A DNA stretch of 64,000 nt, taken from Ruditapes philippinarum (lineage: Eukaryota). This document shows positions 1-15,937 of this stretch, one piece after another. Within the stretch, counting starts at the first letter, position 1. Every line of letters begins with the position of its first letter. The notes below the pieces were generated by a model. It ran no database searches. It was not told the origin of the DNA and was given only the letters and a program-made list of their open reading frames with translations. The position numbers and the translations under genes were made by a program. Where the stretch lies: assembly GCF_026571515.1 (NCBI RefSeq), contig NW_026863698.1:1-64000 (forward strand). The letters are read 5' to 3'.

Positions 1-346
1 AAGTTCCGCCCATTGTTTTCCTCGTTTGGGCACACGCTTTTTATTACTTGGGGACCCAATACGCCGCTTTTCATGGAAATGGCCGGTAGTGTCACATTGA
101 AGGTTCCATGATAACCGCCGTATGAACACATCTGCGGATGTTTCTAAATTCAAAAATTTACTATTTCATGTTTAAATGTTGAATTCTGCTTAAGCCGGAT
201 GCTAGGGGGCGGGTGGACGGTAACTTGCACTTTCCAGTACCGTCCATGAAACAGGCTCAATCAAACCGAGCCTGCAACATTTTCAATTTTGCCGTGTTGG
301 GCTCTCTTTAGGGATTCTGTATTTATCTATTTAATAAAACCTAACA

Positions 347-471
347 AAATCTTCACTATCCATGTGGGATTCCTTTGAGAGTTTACCCTGGATAGACTTT
401 TCTTATTAATTAAAAGTATCTTCACTACTCATCTGGGATCCCTTTGAGAGTACACCCCGAGTAGACTTTTC
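347..471. repeat. Two-copy ~70 bp imperfect tandem duplication
   Basis: atcttcacta..cat.tgggat.cctttgagagt..accc.ga.tagactttt occurs twice. Confidence 0.7.
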
Positions 472-1061
472 AACTTAAAATGAATATGTTTACAAATGAT
501 TACACGTGCACAACAAAAAGTGTTTGTATTCTTTTAATAACAAAATCCTTTCGTCTTAAACGAAAATGACGAAGCAACTTTATTCGCTCCTTCTCGGTCA
601 GGTGTGGAAGATAATTGCCTTCCAGAATCGATAACAACGTCCTCATCTTTGTTTGATGACACTGACCCTACGACCTCAGGAAGGTCTAAATCAGCATTTG
701 CCCACTTACAACATTTAGCCAACCTATTTTCTATTACTTTACATGCATTACATTTACAAAAAACACCTTTTAGTATGGGTGCTGTCAAGTTTTTCTCCAA
801 CCGAGGTTTGATCCTGCGAACGGCACCAAAAAATATTTAAGTTAATGTAACGTTATTCTTAAAATAATTAACAAACGAAAACGATCGTCATAGTGATTTA
901 TTCAATTACTGTCCTTAACATAAGTTAGGTAATTCAAGAACAGAACTACAAGAGACTCCACACTTCTAAAACAATACAATGCTTTTTATTAATGACTTTG
1001 CCCAAACGTGCTTATGACAGCTAAATGACATGCCAAAGTAGGGCCAATCACTTTTAGTGTA

Positions 1062-1285
1062 GCCGCCTCCGTGGTCGAGGGGTTTAGAGTCGATGACTTC
1101 TAATCCAGTTACCTCTCTGGCGTGGGTTCGATCCCCGGGAGATGCTTTGGTAGTTTTAGCGCGGAGGAAGGTAGTCTAGTACTGGTGTAACTCTCCAGGA
1201 ACGATGGTTAGGAAACTACCCGCCTATATGACTGAAATACTGTTTGGAAAAAGGCGTAAAAAATCAAACAAACAAAACAAAACAA
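1062..1285 (+). mobile_element. tRNA-derived SINE (old copy)
   Basis: A-box-like gtggtcgaggggttt, B box GGTTCGATCCC, and 3' tail tatatgactgaaatactgtt...ggcgtaaa followed by (CAAA)n. Confidence 0.75.
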
Positions 1286-1349
1286 GCCATGATGTTGATG
1301 ATGATGAACACCTAAAAAAATAAAAAGGGAAAAATGGTTTCATTCTTGT

Positions 1350-2516
1350 TTAGATCTTAATTTGTGAGGATGGGCGATGAAGAACTGCTGGAGAGAATGC
1401 AAATAAATCAACTGATTCCAGGGATTCCCAGAGATTCTTGTGAGTGCATTAGTGGAACAATGGGAATTCTCCACTTGTTGTCTGGGTACAGCAGCTTGCA
1501 TCTCTACTACAACTTCATCTGGTATTTTATGTCCTCTTCCTCTCCGTCTCTTCTTTAATTGTTTTAAACAACATTATAATGATAGCACCAATGAAAAATA
1601 ATGATGACGATGAGGCTAATTGATCATGATGACATAAACTATGAATTAAAAAAAACTTAAAAGAATTTACAGCTTCCTCATAAAAATTTTCATTGCTTTG
1701 TGTAGGTTCAAGATATGTTTCAGTAAAGAGGCAGTCCTATGAATTGAATTTTGAACTGATTCCATTTCAAATTGCACTATCTTACTATTGTTTATCACTA
1801 TTCTCATGAATTATTATAGGCTTAAAGGATTTATGATATTTTCTATAAATGTATACTAAATATGATTATGAAAATCAGAAGTAATATACTTAAAGTACCT
1901 ATTAAACTCCAAAAAACATCTTAAACATGTTCGAGCCTTCATTTTTAACATCAGTAAATATTTTTACAAGGAACAGAAGTTGTAAACACATTATTAAAAC
2001 ACTGATACTTGAAAAGTGGTATTGGTTTTATAAATAATATACAAAGGAGTGATATTACCTTTGGATAGGGAAGCAGGTGGGTTTGGATTTAGAGTTGTAG
2101 ATTCTAGGTTGTAGTTCTTGGGTTGTAGGTGGGTTTTTGGTTTGGGACTCATAGATTCTGGGGATGATGGGTAATGATCTTTTGTTTCTTGATCGGTTGT
2201 GTAATCATCAGCTGAAATGATAAAAAATAGAGGGATTGGCAATAAATTCAATCTTGTTTATAAAATGATTATTTAACTAATGCGTTATTATTAGCTGAAA
2301 GGAAATAATATTTTAGAGAAACATTTATTTCCGTAGAAGTATTCAACTAAAGTTTCTTATCAGTTTACTATCCTTTAAAATTTAAAATAGTAAGAATCAC
2401 TAAGTATAACTTTCAGTGGTGAATATATTTTAAGATTTCAATACAACATGATCACTATAAAAGTACACACCTGCTGATGTTGTTGTGATGTCTGCCATAC
2501 CATGTACCATATGCTG
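1350..2516 (-). pseudogene. Decayed spliced gene for a probable single-pass membrane protein with Pro/Ser/Thr-rich stalk
   Basis: Exon ~2060-2211 (DDYTTDQETK...PPASLSK) has a canonical cag acceptor and gtaata donor, phase 1-1. A short exon lies at ~2472-2514. A hydrophobic stretch (..FIGAIIIMLFK) followed by KKRRRGRG is readable at ~1500-1640 only across frameshifts. Confidence 0.35.
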
Positions 2517-2800
2517 TAAGAAACATACATAAAATAACAATCTAGAATTAAAAATTTAATAGAGAGATAAATCACAACAGTCTCATACAGATCTATGCAA
2601 TTTATTATAACTTAAGTCACTTCAAACAACCTCGTTGTTGGACTAACCTTTTGATGACATAGTGTGTTGATATAACACATTCATAGTCCTGGGTTCAATC
2701 CCAGGCAGAGACATATATAGAGTTTTCTCCACTAAATGACTGGTGTATAACATAACACCGAGTTATCATCACTTTTTTGTAATTTCAGTGTGCTATTTAA

Positions 2801-5102
2801 ATGAAAACTGGACAAGCAGCTCACATGAATTGTAATTTACAATGCAAACAAGTTAATTTTATTCCAGTAATTTTTCATAACTTGAAAAATTTTGATGCAC
2901 ATTTATTATGTCAAAGTGTAGGATCCTTCAAAGATTATAAAATAAAATGTATACCACAAACCATGGAAAAATATATTAGTTTTAGTGTAGGAAGTCTTAG
3001 ATTTATTGACTCCTTTGCATTTTTACCATCTTCTCTAGAGACACTTGTTGATAATTTAACTCAAGATGGATTAAAAGGTTTTAAACACTTTCAAACTGAA
3101 ATCAAAGATCATACAGAACTGTTATTAAGAAAGGGGGTTTATCCCTATGAATACATGAACCAATGGGGGAAATTTGAAGAGCAACAGCTTCCTCCCATGC
3201 ACGAATTTTACTCGTCACTTACAAATGAAAATATTTCAATGCAAGAGTATGAATATGCTGTACGAGTTTTCGAAGCATGTGGTTGTAAGTCGTTAGGAGA
3301 ATATCATGATCTATACTTGAAAACAGATGTATTATTGCTAGCTGATGTGTTTGAAAATTTCAGAGATATGTCATTAAAATGTTATGACCTTGATCCATGT
3401 CACTTTTACACCAGTCCTGGTCTTAGCTGGCAGGCAATGTTAAAAATGACTGACGTTAGCTTAGAACTCATGACGGATATAGACCAAATTCTGTTTATTG
3501 AGAAGGGTATTCGAGGAGGGATCAGTCAGATTTCCAATAGATACAAAAAAGCAAATAATCCTTATTTAAGTGAGTATGATCCCACAAAAGAAAAGAATTT
3601 TTTGGCATATTACGATATAAATAATTTATATGGTCTGTCGTTATCTGATAGATTACCAATAGGTTTCTTTAGATTTTTATCTGAGGAAGAAATTAAATCT
3701 TTTGATGTTAGGAAAATACCAGAGGATGGATCTAAAGGATATATTTTGGAAGTAGACTTAGAATATCCAGAGAACTTACATGATAGTCATAATGACTATC
3801 CTTTGGCTCCAGAAAGAAAATTTATACCTAATGAAAAATTATCACCTTACGCACAACGTGTATTGAAAAAGCTTCATGGAAAACAAGCAGATGATCCAAT
3901 ACCCCCTAGAGCGAAAGTTGAAAAACTACTCACCACTCTTGAAGATAAAGAAAAGTATGTACTCCACTATAAGAATCTACAGCTGTATCTACGTCTAGGG
4001 ATGAAGCTGAAAAAAATTCACAGAATATTAGAATTTCAACAAGAAGCGTTCATGAAACCGTATGTTGAGTTCAACACAAACATGAGAAAACAGGCTAAAA
4101 CGACCTTTGAGAAGAATTTCTACAAATTGATGAATAATTCTGTGTTTGGTAAGTACATTCTGTTTAATACTGTATATTTCTATATAAGTAAACATTCTAG
4201 ATAATAATTAAACATTCTAGATAATTAATAAACATTCTAGATAATAATTAAATATTCTAGATAATAAATACATTGTATTTCTATAATTACAAAATGAGCT
4301 TACTCAGATTCGACCGTTACTAAATTCACATTTATTTTTACTTTCAGGAAAGACGATGGAGAATCTTAGAAAGCATCGTTCAGTTGAATTGGTACATACA
4401 GAAAAACGCTTAAGGAAGGTATCAGCCAAATCTACCTACAAGCTACATCGAATTTTCTCTGAAGATCTTGTTGGAGTAGAATTAAACAGATTGAAAGTAA
4501 AACTGAACAAACCTATATACATTGGGATGACTGTTTTGGACTTATCCAAAAGGAGCATGTATCATTTCTTTTATGACCATTTAAAAGAATTGTATTCCGA
4601 CAATGTTTCCTTACTTTTCACTGACACTGACTCTTTATTCATTTCATGTAAATGTGAGGATCTATTCCAAGATATGTATGATTATGCTCATCTTTTTGAT
4701 ACTTCTGACTTTCCGAAAGATCACTTTTTACAAAGTGATATCAATAAAAAAGTTATGGGGAAAATGAAAAGTGAAACCAATGAAAAATGTATTTCAGAAT
4801 ACTGCGGTCTCAGATCGAAAATGTATGCTTTTAGTTGTGATGGTAAAGAAGACAAACGTGCCAAAGGTATAGCAAAAGTGGTTGTCAAAAAAGACTTAAA
4901 ATTACAGCATTATAAAGATGTATTATTCAATGATTCTCAATTAGTTTCTCGAATGAATACATTTCGCAGCCATAATCATAAAATTTATCTCGAAAATATT
5001 AAGAAGATTGGACTATCTTGTTTTGATGATAAGAGGTACTTATTAGAGGATGGTATTACATCGTTAGCGTATGGACATTACAAAATAGAAAATACTAATT
5101 AG
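2801..5102 (+). CDS. Protein-primed family B DNA polymerase (Polinton pPolB), N-terminally truncated, 2 exons: join(2801..4148,4348..5102)
   Basis: Motifs HNLKNFD (ExoII), YLKTDVLLL (ExoIII), RKGVYPYEY, RGGIS, YYDINNLYG (motif A), FTDTDS (motif C), GLRSKMY, KGI and DDKRY are present. Removing intron 4149-4347 (gtaagt...ttttactttcag, phase 1) restores motif B KLMNNSVFG-KTMEN. Confidence 0.95.
4189..4270. repeat. ~20 bp minisatellite (taaacattctagataataat) x4 inside the polymerase intron
   Basis: Direct reading of repeated units. Confidence 0.85.
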
Positions 5103-5211
5103 ATATTTATTCTATCAGCTATGACAGTTCAGAGAATATAAATATTTCACAGCACACCCATCAACCAAACAACTTTTTATGTTTTTTGTTTGTTTTCTCT
5201 TCTTTTCCGTC

Positions 5212-7216
5212 TTATTGTGCAAGTGTAACCTAAAAAAATGAAATATTAATGTGTATAACAATTATTCTTATTGTCATTATATTAATGTGTAGAACTACTA
5301 TTATTACCATCACATTAATGTGTTTACCATTTTAAATGTTTAATAAAGAGTTTCAACAATTCTGTCTCAGTATCTTTTTTATCTTTAGAAATGTCTTACC
5401 GGAATGGCGTAAAAGATACTGTCCTCCCCCTCGAATTGGTCATCCTGGTTATTATATATGGCGACCTAAGAATGTTAATTAAGATGAATATGTAAATGTG
5501 TACATACTATTATATATCTCAAATATTTTACATTATTTGCAATTCATTTAAATTATTGCTAACAAAAGATGAAATGTATTAATTAGCATATAAATTAAGC
5601 AACAGGTGAAATGTATGTTAAAGTATTAATTAGCATATAAGTATTAGTTTAATCAACTTACACTCCAGCCTCTTCAGCAGACTGATATTATCTTAAATTT
5701 AAGATGACTTATTAATATGCAAAGATGTTATTTACAAATATGATATATTTTTATACTATAAATTATAAAATGAAGTGGTATGGAGTAAATATATACTTTG
5801 ATGTTTACGTTAGGATAGGTTGAAAGATGAATCTTGCACATAAACTTACGGCTTGAGCAGAAACAATCTGCTGTGGTTGTTGCATCTGCTGTGGTTGTTG
5901 CATCTGCTGTGGATGTTGCATCTGCTGTGGTTGTTGCATCTGCTGTGGTTGTTGCATCTGCTGCTACTGTTGTTGTTGAGGTTGTTGCATCTGCTGTGGT
6001 TGTTGCATCTGCTGCTGCTGTGGTTGTTGCATCTGCTGCTGCTGCTGTTGTTGTTGAGGTTCTTGCATCTGCTGCTGCTGAGGTTGTTGCATCTGCTGCT
6101 GTCGCTGTTGTTGAGGTTCTTGCATCTGCTGCTGTCGCTGTTGTTGAGGTTCTTGCATCTGCTGCTGTCGCTGTTGTTGAGGTTTTTGCATCTGCTGCTG
6201 TCGCTGTTGTTGAGGTTCTTGCATCTGCTGCTGTCGCTGTTGTTGAGGTTGTTGCATCTGCTGCTGATGCTGTTGTTGAGGTTCTTGCATCTGCTGCTGA
6301 TGCTGTTGTTGAGGTTCTTGCATCTGCTGCTGTCGCTGTTGTTGAGGTTCTTGCATCTGCTGCTGTCGCTGTTGTTGAGGTTCTTGCATCTGCTGCTGTC
6401 GCTGTTGTTGAGGTTGTTGCATCTGCTGCTGATGCTGTTGTTGAGGTTCTTGCATCTGCTGCTGATGCTGTTGTTGAGGTTCTTGCATCTGCTGCTGATG
6501 CTGTTGTTGAGGTTGTTGCATCTGCTGCTGATGCTGTTGTTGAGGTTCTTGCATCTGCTGCTGATGCTGTTGTTGAGGTTGTTGCTGCTGTACCTGCAGA
6601 TGTGGGTTTTTTTAGAAAATATGAACATGAATAAACTGAATAAATATTGAATATTTCAGAACATATGTTTCACATCCTTAAGATAAAATGTTAGCACTTG
6701 GATTCTTAACACATACAAGTTCAAAATATGTGTCTTCAAACCACTTAATGCTATTTTTTATGACCAATAGTTTAAACATCAACGATTCCCTAAAACGGAT
6801 GCAAATACTGGTTAAATTTCCAGGAAGAAGTCACCCTGAGCGTGATTAATATAAGTTGTAAGAACTTGTTACACAATCAATGTAAAATAAATAGGTTTTA
6901 ACCAAATGATAACAATAACTTAGAAATATTCTTAACAAACCTGTGGTGATGTACTGTTGAATATATCCGCATAATGTTCCACTCTTAGGAGTAATTTCCG
7001 AAGTTCTTCAATCTCATCTTTATTAAATGTTATAGATTTTGATTTTGAAAAATCGAATTTTCCCCCAGGGCTATTGAAGCAGCCTTTTTTGTCTGATATA
7101 TGCACATATGTCCTCCCGTTAAACGGGGTGATACATATCTCCTTATTTTTCCCAAATTGGGAAGATGCTTTAACTATTCTGTTATCATAACTTCTCTTTT
7201 CGGTGAAACTAGCCAT
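5212..7216 (-). CDS. Multi-exon PC4/Sub1-like domain + polyglutamine-repeat protein (premature TAG at 5964-5966)
   Basis: Exon 1 6941-7216 has a PC4-like pattern FGKNKEICITPFNGRTYVHI...KSITFNKDEIEELRKLL and a gtttgt donor. Exon 2 5850-6593 (cag|GTA, in frame, Gln repeat) ends at a gtaagt donor. A mini-exon at ~5662-5681 has uncertain phase. Exon 5400-5465 reads VAIYNNQDDQFEGEDSIFYAIP. Last exon 5212-5229 reads VTLAQ*. Confidence 0.7.
5866..6590. repeat. Coding minisatellite: ~15 x 33 nt (MQEPQQQ[H/R]QQQ) plus 18-nt units (MQQPQQ)
   Basis: Direct reading; it explains the multiple overlapping ORFs on both strands. Confidence 0.95.
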
Positions 7217-7307
7217 TTTTAAACAAGGAATAGTAACCAATAAACTCAATGAATAGTAAGCAGTAAACTCAATGAATAATTTGAGGAAATTGTTTAAAAA
7301 CAAAATG

Positions 7308-7506
7308 TTTTATAGTCATCAGCTGATGTTCTTTCGTGGTCAATTTTTTAAACTGAAAATATACTACCCTTGTGATTGGTTCATTAAAAAGCATCTATAT
7401 TAGGGGCATTTTCATTGGTTAGTGTTTTATATCTTTACATCAATTTACTTAATTTACTTTTCCATTGGTTCTGTAATAAACATCTCTGAAAACAAATTTA
7501 CATTGG
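7308..7506 (-). promoter_or_regulatory. Putative Pol II promoter of the PC4-like gene: TATA box plus four CCAAT boxes
   Basis: CTATAAAA (minus strand, 7308-7315) lies ~90 bp upstream of the ATG. CCAAT occurs on the minus strand at 7375, 7414, 7464 and 7502. Confidence 0.5.
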
Positions 7507-7919
7507 ATAATCAACCAAACGAGTTAAAGTATTTGCATTATTAAACTATTGTCGTTTTTTTTTTTTTTTTTATATCTATTTTACGGAATGGTAAACGTAA
7601 ATGAACTAATCCTACAAGTGCCGCAAATGATGAAGTAGTTAATATTGCTGCAAGAAAATGAAGCTCAGCTGAAACAACACCTTTTTTTCTCTATCACATG
7701 TAACATTTAGTACCTTACAACCTTTCATATCTTTTCGCTACATTAAATTATTTGAGTTAATTAAGCGATAACAAGTTTGACCTTGAACTTTATATATTAT
7801 AACACGCAGTAGAAGAAAAAACGGTAAAAGGAAGAAAACGCAAAGAAAACTGCCATGTATTTGATATTTTTGTATCTGCTACCTACTTTGGGCGTAAAAT
7901 CAGTGCAGACATCTATCGA

Positions 7920-8306
7920 CATGACAGCTGATAAAACAGTGTGTGTCTTTTTATTAAGAAGTGGTTGAACTAATAGAAAACGAGAGAAAATATATATTAC
8001 AACTAATAAGTATTTTATTCCATCATTATATTTTGAAATATTTTCAACTGACATAAGATCCATATCAGCTTGATCGTTTAAACCTGCTACTTGTACATTT
8101 GGGGTATTATATCTATGTCTTATTTGTTTTTGTACTGCATACGCATCTTGATTATTCAACCATTTCTTGATGAAATTCAAACTAAATACTCCAGGGTATT
8201 TTTCAGATAATAGTTTTAACAACTTTGTAGCACCTAAATAACTTCCAGGATTTTTTACATCAAAATAGTACTCCAAGAGAATGTGTTCCTTCTGTGTCTT
8301 ATCCAT
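7920..8306 (-). pseudogene. Polinton-type retroviral-like integrase, N-terminal part only (3' truncated)
   Basis: From ATG 8306: YYFDVKNPGSYLG...WLNNQDAY...QADMDL...NDGIKYLLVVIYIFSR...PLLNK matches the Polinton integrase N-terminus. Similarity is lost after ~7920, so the rest of the DDE core and the chromodomain are absent. Confidence 0.85.
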
Positions 8307-9203
8307 TTTTATATGCCCGAAAGGGCATATTATGTTATACCCCCTGGCGTCCGTTTGTCTGTCCGTCCGTACGTCCGTCCGTCCGTTAGCAATTTGGTTT
8401 CCGGAGCATAACTTAAGTTCCATTTGGCCCACAATGTTCAAACTTCATAGGATGATTGCCCATATTGGGTAGAAGACCCCTATTGATTTTGGGGTCAAAA
8501 GGTCAAAGGTCAAGGTCACTATGACCTTAAAACTGAAAACAGTTTCCGGAGCATAACTTAAGTTCCATACGACCCACAATGTTCAAACTTCATAGGATGA
8601 TTGTCCATATTGGGTAGAAGACCCCTTTTGATTTTGGGGTCACAAGGTCAAAGGTCAAGGTCACTATTTCCTTGATACTGTAAAACACAATATTCAAACT
8701 TCATAGGATGATTGTCCATATTGGGCAAAAGACCCCTATTGATTTTGGGGTCACTAGGTCAAAGGTCAAGGTCACAATTACCTTAAAACCAAAAACAGTT
8801 TCCAGAGCATAACGGAAGTTCCATTTGGCCCACCATATTCAAACTTCATAGGATGATTGTCCATATTGGGTAGAAGACCCCTATTGATTTTGGGGTCACA
8901 AGGTCAAAGTCACTTTTACCTTAATACTGAAAACAGTTTCTAGAGCATAATTAAAGTTCCAATTGGCCCACAATATTCAAACTTCTTAGGATAATTGTCC
9001 ATATAAGGTAGAAGACCCCTATTGATTCTGGGGTCACAAGGTCAAAGGTAAAGTTCATTAATAATAACTTAAGTATTAATCAACCTACAGCTGTAAAACT
9101 TTATAGGATGAACAGCGAATTCCCATGTCTTACAAATGCTTCATCCTTACTAAAAAAACAACACTTTCGGGCATATAATGCTCCGCCTAGCGGTGCTCTT
9201 GTT
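8307..9203 (+). mobile_element. Non-autonomous Helentron/pearl-like element with internal tandem repeats, inserted immediately upstream of the integrase ATG
   Basis: T-run start, subterminal IR tatatgcccgaa / ttcgggcatata, (GTCC)n microsatellite, ~5 units with ggggtcacaaggtcaaaggtcaagg, and 3' hairpin gctccgcctagcggtgc followed by tcttgtt. Confidence 0.85.
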
Positions 9204-9359
9204 GATACTTGTAAATGAAGAAATATGCTTAAATGTGAAATGGATTAGACAAGACTGAACACATTCTTTATTTCAACTATTAAAAAATAACAAGACACTT
9301 TTTATTACAACCTTTTACTAAGATAAAAACAAGTGCTTATATGTTATTTTACATGATAA

Positions 9360-9813
9360 TTATTTGTTTGCGAGTACCTGTTTGTGCAAGTAAATCACTT
9401 CGTGTGAAAGGTTAAGTCCTTGTACTAAGACTTCCCATGCTTGCAACACTTTGGTTTCATCTACTTCCAGTAACATTTCTTCAAAGTAAAAGTCATAGGC
9501 TTGCTCGTCATCATACATAAGGTCGCTCATGATACAGTCATGTTGTGTCAGTGAAGGGTGATCTATAAAACATCCATAGCAATGTTTCTTCACTATCATA
9601 CTTTTTACGTTAATCAATGCTTTTGCATATACAAAGTCAAAATATGAGTTCATCAACATCACGCTAGTTGCAGGAGGTGTACAATGGTTAATAGTAACAT
9701 GACTTTGCTTCATTTCATCCAGCTCCTCCTCATCAAATTGTGTAAGAGTCACTCCGTTCATTGTCACTATCCACATATTCATTGTTTTCAATTTCTAATC
9801 TCAGATTTGCCAT
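9360..9813 (-). pseudogene. Polinton accessory ORF with CxGCxxxHPSxxxHxC motif, frameshifted near the 5' end
   Basis: Motif HCYGCFIDHPSLTQHDC. The probable true start ATG 9813 (MANLRLEIENNEY..) is out of frame with the rest. Confidence 0.6.
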
Positions 9814-9942
9814 GTTTATACCAGTAGTGCAAGGGCAAAAATGTTTTTGAAGTTTTACAGTGGTTAACTTATATATACGTACGTCTATACAGCTTGGTTT
9901 TCGAAATAACGGTTATTTCAAAATTTGTATTTTCACTTTGCT

Positions 9943-10299
9943 CTACCGCCAAAAAGTGAGGTGCTCTCCCACTGAGCTGCTCCATTTTAGATCCTCATCT
10001 AGAAGAGAAATATTTTCAGACCGATTTGATTGTCCAACCATTTTCAGAAATAAAAAACTTTTTGAATGAATACCGTGTTCTTTCATTGGATCGTCTGTCT
10101 TTTTCCATTGATTGAGTCTAATAGCACAGGAAAAACATTGTACAATATCTCCTCTCCCCGTATAATAAAATCCAGCAGATGCCAGTTCATATTTATTAGG
10201 TTGAATTTGTTGAGACCAGGATTCGAACGTTTGTAGTCTATTCTCATACAGTTTAAGCTCTGGTGATTTAAACTCTATACCTAAACCCGTACATTCCAT
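9943..10299 (-). CDS. Single-BIR-domain inhibitor-of-apoptosis-like protein (fourth Zn ligand Cys replaced by Phe)
   Basis: RLQTFESW...LASAGFYYTGRGDIVQCFSC...WKKTDDPMKEH is the BIR consensus. The ORF is intronless and has no RING. Confidence 0.9.
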   Translation of the reverse strand: MECTGLGIEFKSPELKLYENRLQTFESWSQQIQPNKYELASAGFYYTGRGDIVQCFSCAIRLNQWKKTDDPMKEHGIHSKSFLFLKMVGQSNRSENISLLDEDLKWSSSVGEHLTFWR

Positions 10300-10602
10300 T
10301 ATGACTGTCCTTGTAAAAATGAACCTAACAACTGAATGCTTTCCTTTAAATCACACAAAGATTCAAACTGTTTCATATCTATAGATAATGTGGATTTTCC
10401 TTTTTGTAAAATAATCACCGTTTTACTTCGTTTTTTCTTAATAGTTTATAAATGTTTATCATCTAAGCTACAACGAACCTCTTTTGTTATTGGACACCAA
10501 TTAACAGTCTGAAAGCCATAAGTTTTCAAATAATATAAAGATTCCTCACTAAACATCAATTGTGCTTGAGCCATGCTTTTAGAAACAAATAAACAATCGT
10601 CT

Positions 10603-10878
10603 TTAAATATTACGAAGCATTCCTTCTTCTAATGATTCGTCTGCCATTAAATTTGGGGTAAAATTACACAACTCGTGCCACCAATGTCCGTTTTGTAAAT
10701 ACCTATTTGCCGCAAAAGTAAAGCGTGATGGATAAGCTTGTAATAAACCAATCATATAATAATGCGACCAACGAAGGCTATGAAAAACATCTTGTACTTC
10801 TGCATCTACCCAAGGATATCTTTCATCTTCATTTAACCAAAATGAATTACTGTTTACAGCATAACGTCTCAAATCCAT
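10603..10878 (-). CDS. Small Trp/Tyr-rich orphan protein (paralogue A)
   Basis: Aligns by eye with 11190-11477 (MDLRxY..FWxNxxERxxWxDxEV..YMIxLLxxYPSxF..HWWHELCxFTxNLM); protein-level conservation supports coding. Confidence 0.75.
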   Translation of the reverse strand: MDLRRYAVNSNSFWLNEDERYPWVDAEVQDVFHSLRWSHYYMIGLLQAYPSRFTFAANRYLQNGHWWHELCNFTPNLMADESLEEGMLRNI

Positions 10879-11189
10879 TCTGATGTTAAAAAGACAATCA
10901 TCAAGTAATCTTTAACGTAAAGCATTCAACAACCGTAGTTTATACCCCTCGCTTAATTTCAAACTGGTTGCTTACATTTAAAAAAGATCACTAGTTATTT
11001 CCCGCCATATTTGACCGCCAACTGTTTGGAATACATTCACGTCCAGCCACAATCAAAAGTCGTGATGAAAATTAGGTTCTATACACAAGATAATGCATAG
11101 TTTTCAATGAACAATCACAACAGTACTTGAAAGATTTAAGTGTTTTACTAAAAAACTTGTTTCGACAGTCATGTTAGAAGTGGAACGAT

Positions 11190-11477
11190 TTATTGTCTAG
11201 GTATAAAGTCTTCTACATCATAAGCTTGATTTTTCATTAAATTTGAAGTAAAATAACATAACTCGTGCCACCAATGCTCACCCTCTTCATATCTATAAGC
11301 TACTTCATTAAATTCTGAGGGATAATGTCTAAGAAGATCAATCATATAAGACCGTGTCCATCCAACATGATAATTAACACTGAACACTTCGTCATCAGCC
11401 CATGAGTGTCTCTCGTAATCATTCACCCAAAAGGATTCAAAAATGCTACCGTCTATATCATAACTTCTCAAATCCAT
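11190..11477 (-). CDS. Small Trp/Tyr-rich orphan protein (paralogue B)
   Basis: Paralogue of 10603-10878; shared upstream motif atttcaaactg.ttg.t..catttaa. Confidence 0.75.
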   Translation of the reverse strand: MDLRSYDIDGSIFESFWVNDYERHSWADDEVFSVNYHVGWTRSYMIDLLRHYPSEFNEVAYRYEEGEHWWHELCYFTSNLMKNQAYDVEDFIPRQ

Positions 11478-12148
11478 TCTTAAAAGTTAAAATATATCCA
11501 ACACCACTGATGGCTAATTAATACCCCTAGACCGTTGTCAATACAATAGCTCTCCACCAAAAGCTGAAAGGTGATATTGATCGTTTGCATTTCAAAAACT
11601 GATTTCAAACTGATTGTTATCATTTAAGAAAAACCCCGCTCTACTAGTTTAAATCGATATAGTTTAAAAAATGGCGCTAAACCCTGTCATCTACCACGTC
11701 GTCTGCTACACCGCCATCTTGGAACCTTGAGTCATCGTCTCACGTTACTAACGTCGGCCATATTGCGCCGCCGGCGCAAGATGGCCGCGAAATTATCAAT
11801 TTTACACTACTAATATTTACAGATTTATCTTTCTTTGAACTTAGGATTTTCTTTAAGAAATATTATAACTTCTTTACTTTTTAAGGTATATACTTCAAAC
11901 TTCAAATATATGTTTCTTATCATTACACACATGTTGTGTGAAATGTTCATAACCCAAGCATGACTTTTTTTAGAATTATTCCTCTTGATCTTGGAATTTA
12001 TGTTAACAAATGGTATTTTTTTACTATAACTTAATACATAATTATACATAATTGGTTTTTCTTTCATAGTTTTGTCCTCCTTACTGCGTCCAGTATTTTA
12101 TTAGTCGAGCTTGGCTGTCTCCTGTGACAGTTCTTGTTAGAAATTGAT

Positions 12149-12330: not shown

Positions 12331-12710
12331 TCATATATATATACAAAATAGATAAACAAAACTTATGTGACAGACCAACTTAATTTATAAAAAGGAAACG
12401 TTAAGATATGTTCAAACCTTTCTATGTTTGCGTTTAGAAAAAGTAAAAAGTCGAGCATTGCCCCCGCCCGGCGGTGGCTCTTGTTTAATCTACTGTCGCC
12501 ATCTGTAATGTATAAAGAATAAACAGTATTATACCTTCGTTAATTGTGAAGACCTATTTTTTATAATACGTGTTAGCAAATCCCACCAAGCGCATTTTGG
12601 AAAGAAAGACCTGAGTTCGTATAACCACAGAGTTGGGTATACATTGTAAAAATACTTCACACTCTTCATTATTTAAATGTCCATATATGAACATAATTAT
12701 GTGGTAATCT

Positions 12711-14160
12711 TGAGGTAACAAAAATATATTTGCATTGATACATGCTGGTACATATTTCTTTGTTTATGTTAATATAGCTTTAAAATAAAAGATAAACTCA
12801 AGTTATAATTAGAATATATGATACGTATGTTCAAGTATTAATTAGCATATAAATTTTGAATCATATCAGTAATGGCTTAATCAACTTACTTAAGGGGATG
12901 ATACTCCAGTGACCTTAGCAGCAGCATCAATTTGTTGTTGCTGAGGTGGTGGTGTTTGTTCCGGTTGCTGTTGCTGCTGTCGAAGTGGTTGTTGCTGTAG
13001 TGGTTGTCGCGATGTTGTTAGTGATGATGATGTCTAAAACATGCAATCTCAATTTATAACATAACATTATACATATAAAAAATATACTATAACATTGTAC
13101 ATGCATCTTACTAAAAATGTTAGCACTTATACTTAGATACATACATCTTAAGCATATACCTTTCAATGAGTAAATGATATTTTGTCTATGATCAATAATT
13201 TCTAACATCATAAATATAAAGTATAAAACAAACCTGTGTGAATGTCTTATTTGAAATGTTGCATTTTTTATATTTTAAAAAATGAAAATGTCTTACTGGG
13301 GTGGCTAAGAAGTACTCGTCATTCCCATCAAACTTGTCTTGAGGATAAAGTGTAATCTGGAGGTAACAAAAATATATTCGCATTGATACATGCTGGTACA
13401 GATTTCTTCTTTTTTTATGTTAATATATCTTTAAAATGAAAGATAAACTCAAGTTATAATTAGCATATATGATACGAATGTTAAAGTATTAATAATCATA
13501 TAAATTTTTAATCATGTCAGTAATGACTTAATCAACTTATTTAAGGGGGTGATACTACAGTGACCTCAGCAGCAGCAACAATTTGTTGTTGCTGAGGTGG
13601 TGGTGTTTGTTCCGGTAGTGGTTGTCGCGATGTTGTTAGTGATGATGATGTCTAAAACATGCAATCTCAATTTATAACATCAAACATATAAAAAATATAC
13701 TATAACATTATACATGCATCTTACTAAAAATGTTAGCACTTATACTTAGATACATACATCTTAAGTATATACCTTTAAATGAGTAAATGCTATTTTGTCT
13801 ATGACCAATTATTTCTAACAACAAGCGAGGTGATATCTAAATGCTATAAAATAATAAAATAAAATAAAAAAAATGACAAACCTGCGTGTTGGTTAATTTA
13901 TCATGATAATAATCCACTCTACCTAGCAACTTTTTCAGTTCATCAATTTCCTCCTTGCTGAAGGAAATAGATTTGGTTTTTGTAAAGTCAAATTTACCGC
14001 TAGGGTTGTTAAAACAACCCTTGACGTCGGATATGTGGATACATGTATTCCCATGAAAAGGGGTCATACATATTTCTTTATTCTTTCCAAATTTTGAAGA
14101 AGCTTTCACTAGAACGCTATTGTAATTTCGTTTTTCAGTGAAACTAAACATACATGACAT
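12711..14160 (-). pseudogene. Second PC4-like/Gln-rich gene (paralogue of 5212-7216) with an internal ~650 bp tandem duplication
   Basis: Exon 13882-14160 is highly similar to exon 1 of the first copy, with the same gtttgt donor position. A Gln/Pro-rich exon occurs twice (~13540-13652 and ~12890-13033). Exon ITLYPQDKFDGNDEYFLATP is homologous to exon 5400-5465. Confidence 0.7.
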
Positions 14161-14785
14161 GTGGCATTATAAGGTAAACCCACTAGTGGGTATATGTCAG
14201 TCTGTTTGTTGGATTTCTTTCCCTTGACGGATAGCGTCTTTCTCTTCCTTCTCTTGCTTGCAATGGAATTTGTTCATCGTGATTATAAAATCCATACTGT
14301 ATCCAATTAAAAAAATATGATAAATGTCTGTCATAAAAATGTATAAACTAATCACTGTTGTAAACATGATAAGTTACATATATCTCACGCGTGTTAATTA
14401 ATACTGTCCTGTTTATTGAGAGTTTAAATATCAATATAATTATATCGTTATTCGTGTAAATTAAAATATAATTCTTGTTTTAAAAATATATTATTCTTGA
14501 TTAATACATCGTTTCTGTTTCGTTTGAAAAAAGACAGTTAAATAAAAATATTTATATTTGCGCTCCCTGGCTATGCCACATGAAACACAAGAGCAAGTGG
14601 ATTGAAAATGTCTGGCATTTAACCAATGCCAGACCTTTTATAAACACTAGGGGCGCGTTTGTTTTGCATAAACCGGTTTCAGTAGTAGGTTTAGGTTTTA
14701 TGACAAATTATTTTGAAACCAAAACTAGTTTAGATGGTTTGCAGTTGCTACTACAAATGCATGGTTTTACAAATGGTTTGCAATC

Positions 14786-15937
14786 ATGGCAGAACTTGTG
14801 GCAGCATTGCAGGGAATTTTTGAGGATGAAGATAAATCAGACGCTAGTCATGTTTATTTATCTTCCAGAAATCACGCGATATATGCTCAGATCAGTGGTG
14901 TGCTTGCATTTAGTACACTTCGTCATGAAAAAAGTAGAATTCGTGGTTATGTGGAGACTGTCTACCGTCAATACACCATTGATGATTTCAAAGACCGTTT
15001 TCGAATGAACAGAGACACATTTGAAAAACTCTTACATATGATGTCACCTTTTTTGAAGAACTCAAGGGGTGTACACCAGATTACGGCTGAGAAAAAACTA
15101 CTGTTGTTCATCAAATATCTTTCTACGCAAACTACGTTTCAGCAACTAGCAGACATCTTTGGTGTGTGTGAAACAAGTGTCCATTCTGTTATCCACGATG
15201 TGTCTGAGATGATTTGCGTCAAACTTTTGCCCGAGTTGATAAAATGGCCAACAGGTAAAAAAGCCAAGGAGACAATAGATGGCTTTCAGCAACTAGCTGG
15301 CTTTCCTGGGATAATGGGCACTATTGATGGTAGTCACATTCCCATCCGTACACCGTCAGAATTTCCAGAAAACTACATCAATCGTAAACAGTACCCTTCT
15401 ATTGTTTTACAAGCCGTGTGCGATAGTAAGCTACTATTCATCGATGTCTTTTGTGGTTGGCCAGGATCAGTCCATGACTCAAGAATCCTTAAAAATTCCC
15501 CACTTATGGATAAAATTGAGGCTGATGTTTCGCAAGTTTTCCCAGGTAACACGCATCTCCTCGGAGATTCAGCATATGCCCTAGCATCTTGGATGATGGT
15601 TCCTTACAAAGACTGTGGCAATTTAAACAAAGATCAAAAGACATACAACTACATTCACAGTTCCACAAGGATGTGTATTGAACGTGCTTTTGGTGCGTTG
15701 AAGGGGCGGTTTCGAAGGTTAAAGTTTATTGACTTGAAGGACATTTCTTGTATTGTACATATTGTACTTAGCTGTTGCACCCTCCATCAGCTTTGTGTCC
15801 AGTGCAGAGAAGACCTGCTGGATTACATCACTGAAGGAATGGCTGAAGCTGACGAGGCTAACTATTTTGAGAACTTCATGCCACTTTGTAGCAGTGCAGA
15901 GATGAAAAGAAAAACGATTGTTTGCACTCTCAAATGA
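14786..15937 (+). CDS. Harbinger transposase (HARBI1-like DDE nuclease), intact, 383 aa
   Basis: Motifs FRMNRDTF, IDGSH, NRK, GSVHDS, LLGDSAY, YNYIHSSTRMCIERAFGALKGRFR and LHQ. Confidence 0.95.
   Translation: MAELVAALQGIFEDEDKSDASHVYLSSRNHAIYAQISGVLAFSTLRHEKSRIRGYVETVYRQYTIDDFKDRFRMNRDTFEKLLHMMSPFLKNSRGVHQITAEKKLLLFIKYLSTQTTFQQLADIFGVCETSVHSVIHDVSEMICVKLLPELIKWPTGKKAKETIDGFQQLAGFPGIMGTIDGSHIPIRTPSEFPENYINRKQYPSIVLQAVCDSKLLFIDVFCGWPGSVHDSRILKNSPLMDKIEADVSQVFPGNTHLLGDSAYALASWMMVPYKDCGNLNKDQKTYNYIHSSTRMCIERAFGALKGRFRRLKFIDLKDISCIVHIVLSCCTLHQLCVQCREDLLDYITEGMAEADEANYFENFMPLCSSAEMKRKTIVCTLK

Follow-up and report, generated by a model that had tools for sequence, protein, structure and literature searches.

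We analysed a 64,000-nucleotide stretch of DNA of the clam Ruditapes philippinarum (contig NW_026863698.1, positions 1 to 64,000; hereafter the window), which forms the start of contig C12185 of the 1.41-Gb assembly G000, the assembly used for the genome searches. Positions 1340–11811 of the window belong to a Polinton/Maverick element, of which they form the right part; the copy is defective and rearranged. A spliceosomal intron interrupts its DNA polymerase gene; it is spliced out in one RNA run, and diverged relatives share it. The lineage thus likely depends on the host spliceosome for its polymerase, a reading that we hold with good confidence. A first-pass annotation made from the letters alone had read the stretch as a molluscan element of Polinton type, some of whose genes are spliced; the terminus, the polymerase, an integrase remnant and the splice found in run X9 bear it out. 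What is notable is that a core gene holds an inherited intron with RNA support, in a genome where several Polinton lineages carry introns.

The polymerase gene is composed as follows.
2815–4148, plus strand: polymerase B exon that precedes the intron, in a gene that lacks its 5′ half
4149–4347, plus strand: phase-1 GT-AG intron of 199 nt, located in motif B of the polymerase; a contig of run X9 skips it, and it lies at the same codon in contigs C13927 and C8727
4348–5102, plus strand: last polymerase exon, with dN/dS of 0.07–0.12 among relatives

What is left of the gene matches the Pfam family DNA_pol_B_2 (PF03175; E=9.9e-20), as in other Polintons/Mavericks. The best named polymerase matches are from Ruditapes, Mya and Mercenaria. 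The polymerases of the relatives harbour N-terminal C2H2 fingers. A polymerase translated from another locus of the assembly, L021, shows no difference from protein P0001 of R. philippinarum where the two align.

The intron joint was looked for in assembled contigs of four runs (X1, X4, X9 and X24); two RNA runs that contain the stretch are labelled mollusc metagenome. In X9, which is RNA on record, an 831-nt contig with a depth of 10.9 skips exactly the 199 nucleotides, with GT..AG ends. The cover in this run lies largely on the exons, with almost none on the intron or the left flank. The contig suggests that the window family is transcribed, and the most likely source of the transcript is a member of that family without the rearrangement.

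The same phase-1 intron interrupts the same codon in C13927 (223 nt) and C8727 (277 nt), two elements at different loci; the relatives with the intron at this codon have protein identities of 83% and 68%. The intron sequences align above shuffled controls for the closest pair only. The dN/dS for the exon is 0.116 between the window and C13927 and 0.073 between C13927 and C8727, the third pair being saturated; judging from these ratios, the exon behind the intron is under strong purifying selection among the relatives. In the genome, the intron matched only itself, and it is therefore not a recent repeat insertion. Among the 88 genome matches of the polymerase, none is a near-identical intronless copy, and the next best, at 83%, bears the intron. 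Such a pattern is that of an old intron which replicating elements have retained. It would have been gained once, in an active ancestor. Its persistence would follow from the way in which the element replicates, DNA to DNA through its own protein-primed polymerase, since no RNA stage intervenes that could erase introns. The genes would be transcribed in the nucleus by host RNA polymerase II and the transcripts then spliced.

We surveyed 27 polymerase loci of the clam genome, i.e. 26 of the 88 matches and the window itself. The motif-B pattern was found in 22 of them, 17 of which are uninterrupted at this place. Three (the window, C13927 and C8727) have the intron at the window's codon, and two (C9746 and C12520) have one five bases further on together with a second one downstream. 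The pattern missed five loci, namely a decayed copy broken at motif B (C6363) and four members of a distant clade (~32% identity). The latter have a donor or an acceptor at the window's codon, both sites being present in two of the four, and at least two of them have a further intron upstream in the polymerase gene. This distant clade corresponds to loci L048–L056 (C14624, C12418 and C10581) and L042 (C6604), in which several polymerase introns and a capsid intron were noted. On sequence alone, C9746 and C12520 appear to have an ATPase intron in common, and C14624 and C10581 a capsid intron.

Public data provided 86 more loci, comprising the best 80 of 323 confirmed ones (28 of 64 parts scanned) and six viral contigs. 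At motif B, 77 of the 86 are uninterrupted, three have a phase-2 intron a few bases upstream, and one has an acceptor at a fourth position; yet another locus has three gaps elsewhere in the polymerase. Metagenome contigs L092, L096, L104, L133 and L094 are those with polymerase introns elsewhere in motif B or, for one of them, with the three gaps elsewhere. Scans of IMG/VR yielded no close match and six distant loci.

Four intron positions in motif B, in separate lineages, fall within ~14 nt; these introns may represent several gains, or sliding. The query began at motif B, and the apparent hot spot may partly be an ascertainment effect. A quick tree of the last exon (46 rows, 247 columns) places the window together with C13927 and C8727 (support 90). 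This group falls inside a clade (support 98) that also comprises the clam proteins, a metagenome locus that bears an intron, and three unnamed proteins, whereas the distant clade that has an intron at the same position stands apart. The gene models P0006 and P0007 break at the junctions of the sister clade, which is no more than a hint of inheritance across hosts. The suggestion that the element belongs to an undescribed molluscan Polinton/adintovirus group is thus plausible as regards the polymerase clade of this one-exon tree. We also considered an introner origin for the introns and rejected it: eight of eight introns compared with 1.19 Mb of sequence show no repeats or inverted ends, and their only matches are homologous copies and one 64-nt match.

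The window copy has lost its middle. In C13927 and C8727, the gene order is terminal cassette, integrase, two small open reading frames (ORFs), capsid, protease, ATPase, small ORFs, polymerase, PC4 gene on the opposite strand, and membrane gene. In the window, the integrase breaks off near 7925, after ~128 codons; collinear blocks show the segment between ~7925 and 2815 in inverted orientation compared with the relatives, and polymerase homology starts abruptly near 2815. The first-pass annotation overlooked both the rearrangement and the integrase remnant. The features at this junction are the following.
7923–8306, minus strand: 5′ third of an rve integrase cut at the rearrangement junction, identified by tblastn to the integrases of the relatives (49% and 76%)
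7855–7925, plus strand: signal-peptide-like stub at the same junction, in a position that fits the start of the membrane gene in C13927
8311–9198, no strand: insertion with satellite sequence, immediately upstream of where the integrase starts; the sister copy C15457 lacks it, as do contigs of runs X10 and X11

The remnant at 8306–7923 provides the retroviral-type integrase expected of a Polinton/Maverick. From its translation and its position, the stub is likely the displaced start of the membrane gene: it faces one junction and the rest of that gene follows the other, as an inversion predicts. A single event would have inverted ~2815–7925, a block that comprises the 3′ part of the polymerase gene, the PC4 gene and the first part of the membrane gene. 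The same event would have taken out the middle of the element, beginning with the integrase core and ending with the 5′ half of the polymerase gene; the repeats would have inserted afterwards. Contigs of X1 and X4 span the junction near 2815, and C15457 spans that near 7925. Contigs of X10 and X11 also hold a form that continues differently at 7924, and unrearranged members hence likely exist in the species. As for the sister copy C15457, it has 87 bases of flank in common with the window, and the promoter, exon 1 and intron of its PC4 gene are amplified about four times as a 935-bp tandem unit (L004:4422–8031).

The capsid, ATPase and protease genes had been expected to lie to the left of the window. 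In the relatives, they lie between the cassette and the polymerase, i.e. in the middle that is deleted here. No match to any of the three was found in the 64-kb window, in 28 kb of C15457 or in C7623, which reaches 7.4 kb beyond the left end of the window. With 12 core-gene queries, only the integrase remnant was detected in the window and in C15457, and nothing in C7623; none of the at least 82 capsid matches of the genome is on these three contigs. The window copy is thus devoid of the major capsid, protease and packaging ATPase genes that define polintoviruses and adintoviruses, and after the inversion and deletion it could probably neither replicate nor package on its own.

The lineage, for its part, has all three. 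In C8727, the integrase comprises Pfam rve (E=9e-11) and chromo domains, the protease matches Peptidase_C5 (E=1e-4), and the ATPase matches Pox_A32 below the cut-off (E=3e-4). Searches of Pfam, PHROG and PDB sequences did not recognize the capsid. Folded from its single sequence, it gave a pLDDT of only 32; with 22 homologues, the model is a double jelly-roll (pLDDT 71) that matches the capsids of Sputnik (E=1.5e-13), PBCV-1 and mavirus. Based on this model, the capsid identification for the lineage is solid. Homologues of the core module are also present in C13927, C9746 and C12520. From its position, another protein of the relatives is a candidate minor capsid (penton) protein; it has no Pfam or PHROG match.

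Several observations weigh against our interpretation. The splice was seen in one contig of one of the four runs, and contigs do not give the strand. The contigs of X1 and X4 run through the intron and its flanks unspliced, as DNA would, and X24 holds no joint at the polymerase intron. The latter run is labelled RNA-Seq, yet 57% of its mapped reads pass into unlike sequence at GATC sites, as in Hi-C, and it was set aside. For the PC4 gene, no splice joint was found in any of four runs (X10 and X11 are DNA-like, and X9 and X14 do not cover it). The trees are quick ones, built from one exon and 247–248 columns. No left end and no partner of the AATATT hexamer were found for the window copy in the window or in its leftward extension C7623. 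Finally, only integrated copies were seen, most of them broken, and we obtained no sign of current mobility.

Might the introns have been inserted into dead copies after integration, with incidental splicing and an intronless active ancestor? Most viral introners of dinoflagellates are post-integration according to the part of the report covered here (PMC12166617), many clam copies are decayed, and the uninterrupted state prevails at motif B in both the genome (17 of 22) and the public loci (77 of 86). However, three elements at different loci share codon and phase at 68–83% identity with saturated silent sites, the exon behind the intron appears to be under strong purifying selection, and the introns are not repeats. 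This scenario is largely refuted, and we regard it as very unlikely. Slightly less probable still is that the spliced contig stems from an intronless DNA copy, retroposed or from a free virus, in the X9 sample. RNA libraries can hold DNA, and the evidence consists of contigs of one run, of unknown strand; but none of the 88 genome matches is such a near-identical copy, and X9 lacks the non-coding flanks, whereas the DNA-like X1 and X4 keep the intron. We give least credence to the idea that an intact virus has its right arm in the window, with capsid, ATPase and protease genes further left and an inversion that is an assembly artefact. It is true that the window begins at a contig start and that, in this region, other runs differ from the assembly by many small indels. 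Nevertheless, both junctions are present in independent sequence, no capsid, protease or ATPase match was obtained in the window, C7623 and 28 kb of C15457, and none of the at least 82 capsid matches of the genome is on these contigs.

An inherited, spliced intron in the polymerase gene of a now defective element therefore remains our preferred explanation. A bolder proposal goes further. Under it, the Polintons of clams would be viruses of the nucleus that depend on splicing; host introns would have entered their core genes on several occasions, with a hot spot in polymerase motif B, and host splicing would switch the replication of a still capsid-competent element. We find this rather improbable.

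An inherited spliced intron points to nuclear, host-processed expression, the mode of expression of adenoviruses. It also offers a datable system for intron gain. Surveys score intactness by ORFs and would miscount intron-bearing lineages as dead; by its own account, one large survey did not take introns into consideration (bioRxiv 10.1101/2025.04.19.649669).

The intron is notable because the core genes of animal Mavericks have been described as intronless. In the parts of the published sources covered here, no introns were seen in the genes of intact vertebrate Mavericks/Polintons (PMC8097293), and the core genes of nematode Mavericks are called intronless, with transcription not detected (bioRxiv 10.1101/2022.07.12.499685). 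The clam lineage departs from both in having a spliced core gene. It resembles the vertebrate elements in its AGTAGT-type end, terminal inverted repeats, 6-bp target-site duplication, predominance of decayed copies, and polymerase, integrase, protease, ATPase and capsid genes; unlike them, it has an inherited and spliced polymerase intron, and sister lineages with putative ATPase and capsid introns (PMC8097293). With the nematode elements, it shares an accessory region between terminal repeat and integrase, intron-bearing accessory genes, and a predicted single-pass membrane protein with a signal peptide (bioRxiv 10.1101/2022.07.12.499685). As in adintoviruses, there are polymerase B, rve integrase, adenain, packaging ATPase and double-jelly-roll capsid genes (PMC8502044). 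IAP and paired-cysteine accessory genes are already reported there (section 3.2), whereas the PC4-polyQ gene, the stalked membrane gene and the orphan pair go without mention in sections 3.1 and 3.2, as does splicing in the main text. Dinoflagellate eupolintoviral elements also have spliceosomal introns inside Polinton-like elements, but those introners are young, repetitive and mostly post-integration (PMC12166617), whereas the clam introns, which occur in an animal, appear old and single-copy and have been passed on together with the element. Mollusc Polintons are known, with nothing on such introns in the sections covered of 10.1101/2023.08.22.554363, PMC12220804, 10.1101/2025.04.19.649669, PMC11244446 and PMC10294476. 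Outside Repbase, subscription journals and supplements (including the adintovirus maps), we found no description of inherited spliceosomal introns in core genes of animal Polintons.

The terminal cassette next to the integrase remnant consists of five ORFs that read inward from the terminus.
11190–11477, minus strand: orphan A, 95 residues, of a family of 12 clusters (E≤0.001)
10603–10878, minus strand: orphan B, 91 residues, a paralogue of orphan A (46%)
10299–10574, minus strand: fifth ORF, 91 residues in relatives, with a premature stop in the window copy and homologues in C13927, C8727 and others
9943–10299, minus strand: single-BIR IAP-like gene, 118 residues (Pfam BIR, E=1.1e-20; PDB BIR domains)
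9360–9812, minus strand: Cys/His ORF, with its 3′ end truncated in the window copy, conserved in all close relatives

The annotation had placed a Cys/His ORF, a single-BIR IAP and two orphan paralogues on one strand. All four identifications hold, the orphans being 46% identical and the Cys/His ORF being kept in all close relatives, and all four ATG-started ORFs of at least 80 residues in 9300–11811 are on the minus strand. The fifth ORF (10574–10299) had been missed; it has three database relatives. Relative to the sister copies, three cassette ORFs are damaged, i.e. the fifth ORF by its premature stop, the IAP by the loss of one of four zinc ligands, and the Cys/His ORF by its 3′ truncation.

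Homologues of the IAP, Cys/His and 91-residue ORFs stand beside core genes in C13927 and C8727, and those of the IAP and Cys/His ORFs in C9746, while C12520 has a Cys/His homologue and a weak orphan homologue (E=9e-4). The accessory genes thus co-occur with the polymerase and capsid module in relatives, a point on which the first-pass annotation had staked its reading. No Pfam family was found above the cut-off for the orphans, and no family or atlas match for the Cys/His ORF. A glycosyltransferase assignment for orphan A (atlas score 0.93, 115 of 256 features) was discarded, as no such Pfam match was obtained in the nine relatives scanned. From what is known of these families, the cassette would act on the host cell, with the IAP directed against apoptosis, and it may play the early host-modulation role that had been proposed. 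Near its other terminus, C8727 has two further accessory ORFs (L080:2087–2926), one of them with a duplicated Cys-rich motif, and neither with a Pfam family above the cut-off.

Two more genes of the element look spliced from their sequences and homologues.
6941–7216, minus strand: PC4-like exon 1, 92 residues (Pfam PC4, E=0.0077, below the cut-off; top three PDB matches are PC4, E=0.13–0.29)
5850–6593, minus strand: predicted PC4 exon 2, a Gln/Pro repeat with one in-frame stop, GT-AG borders and phase 0, with a Q-rich counterpart in C13927 and C8727
5212–5681, minus strand: predicted PC4 micro-exons 3–5 (5681–5662, 5465–5400 and 5229–5212), with peptides and splice phase conserved in C13927
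1671–2513, minus strand: 3′ part of a type I membrane protein gene, with a predicted micro-exon (2513–2471), a 259-nt GT-AG intron, and a stalk and transmembrane exon
1343–1645, minus strand: second small membrane ORF, frameshifted here and open on C7623

The five predicted PC4 exons have GT-AG borders throughout, and the first donor is common to C13927 and C8727; exon 3 is out of phase in the window copy. Homology thus favours the proposed splicing of the PC4-polyQ gene, with five predicted exons rather than two and no RNA joint. The PC4-like protein would, as family knowledge suggests, bind single-stranded DNA during strand-displacement replication. The last exon of the membrane gene encodes a Ser/Thr/Pro stalk and a transmembrane segment, and its intron acceptor is common to C13927, which supports the proposed splicing here as well. 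The gene had been called a relic. It is frameshifted in the window but open in the 98% copy on C7623, and two runs differ from the window here by small indels; part of the relic state may therefore be an assembly error.

The limits of the element are as follows.
11705–11811, minus strand: right terminus, start of the terminal inverted repeat, AGTAGT; the same end occurs elsewhere with different flanks, and the inner limit is approximate
11812–11817: AATATT, candidate target-site duplication adjoining the terminus, partner not found
1–1282: unrelated dispersed repeats outside the element (1–335, 340–1061 and 1063–1282)

The terminus at 11811, reading inward and adjoined by AATATT, had been correctly recognized. 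The last 271 bases of the element match 15 other places in the genome, all of which were compared, and the AGTAG end recurs at the homologous point in nine of them, with eight different flanks. The others are one variant end, one without the last ~60 bases, three short internal matches and one repeat hit in an already counted locus. In the wider lineage, C9746 has paired inverted repeats with an identical hexamer on both sides, and C5092 and C14788, two separate contigs, have a hexamer in common.

In contrast, the single element claimed for 1–11811 does not extend over the dispersed repeats of 1–1282. The leftward extension proposed as a check is provided by C7623, which overlaps window positions 2–2810 at 98%, the window beginning at the contig start; it adds 7.4 kb of repeats and element scraps, with no terminus and no core gene. 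The stretch 340–1061 (also L060:1723–5617) belongs to a multi-copy repeat bounded on either side by 208-bp direct repeats; this repeat resembles a non-autonomous LTR element and is itself broken by other insertions.

At the two ends of C11405 (L073 and L008), the same terminus occurs with a 99% identical flank in inverted orientation, which may reflect a large inverted duplication or a misassembly. A different Polinton, on C15324 (L079), with an uninterrupted polymerase frame of 1403 codons, has 64 bases in common with the terminal repeat of the window family. About 900 bases outside the terminus, positions 12704–14370 of the window hold a second PC4-gene fragment with duplicated exons, 91–94% identical to the C13927 element, and the window copy seems to sit next to an older Polinton remnant. 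Further on, at 14786–15937 on the plus strand, an open ORF of 383 residues encodes what is presumably a protein resembling PIF/Harbinger transposases.

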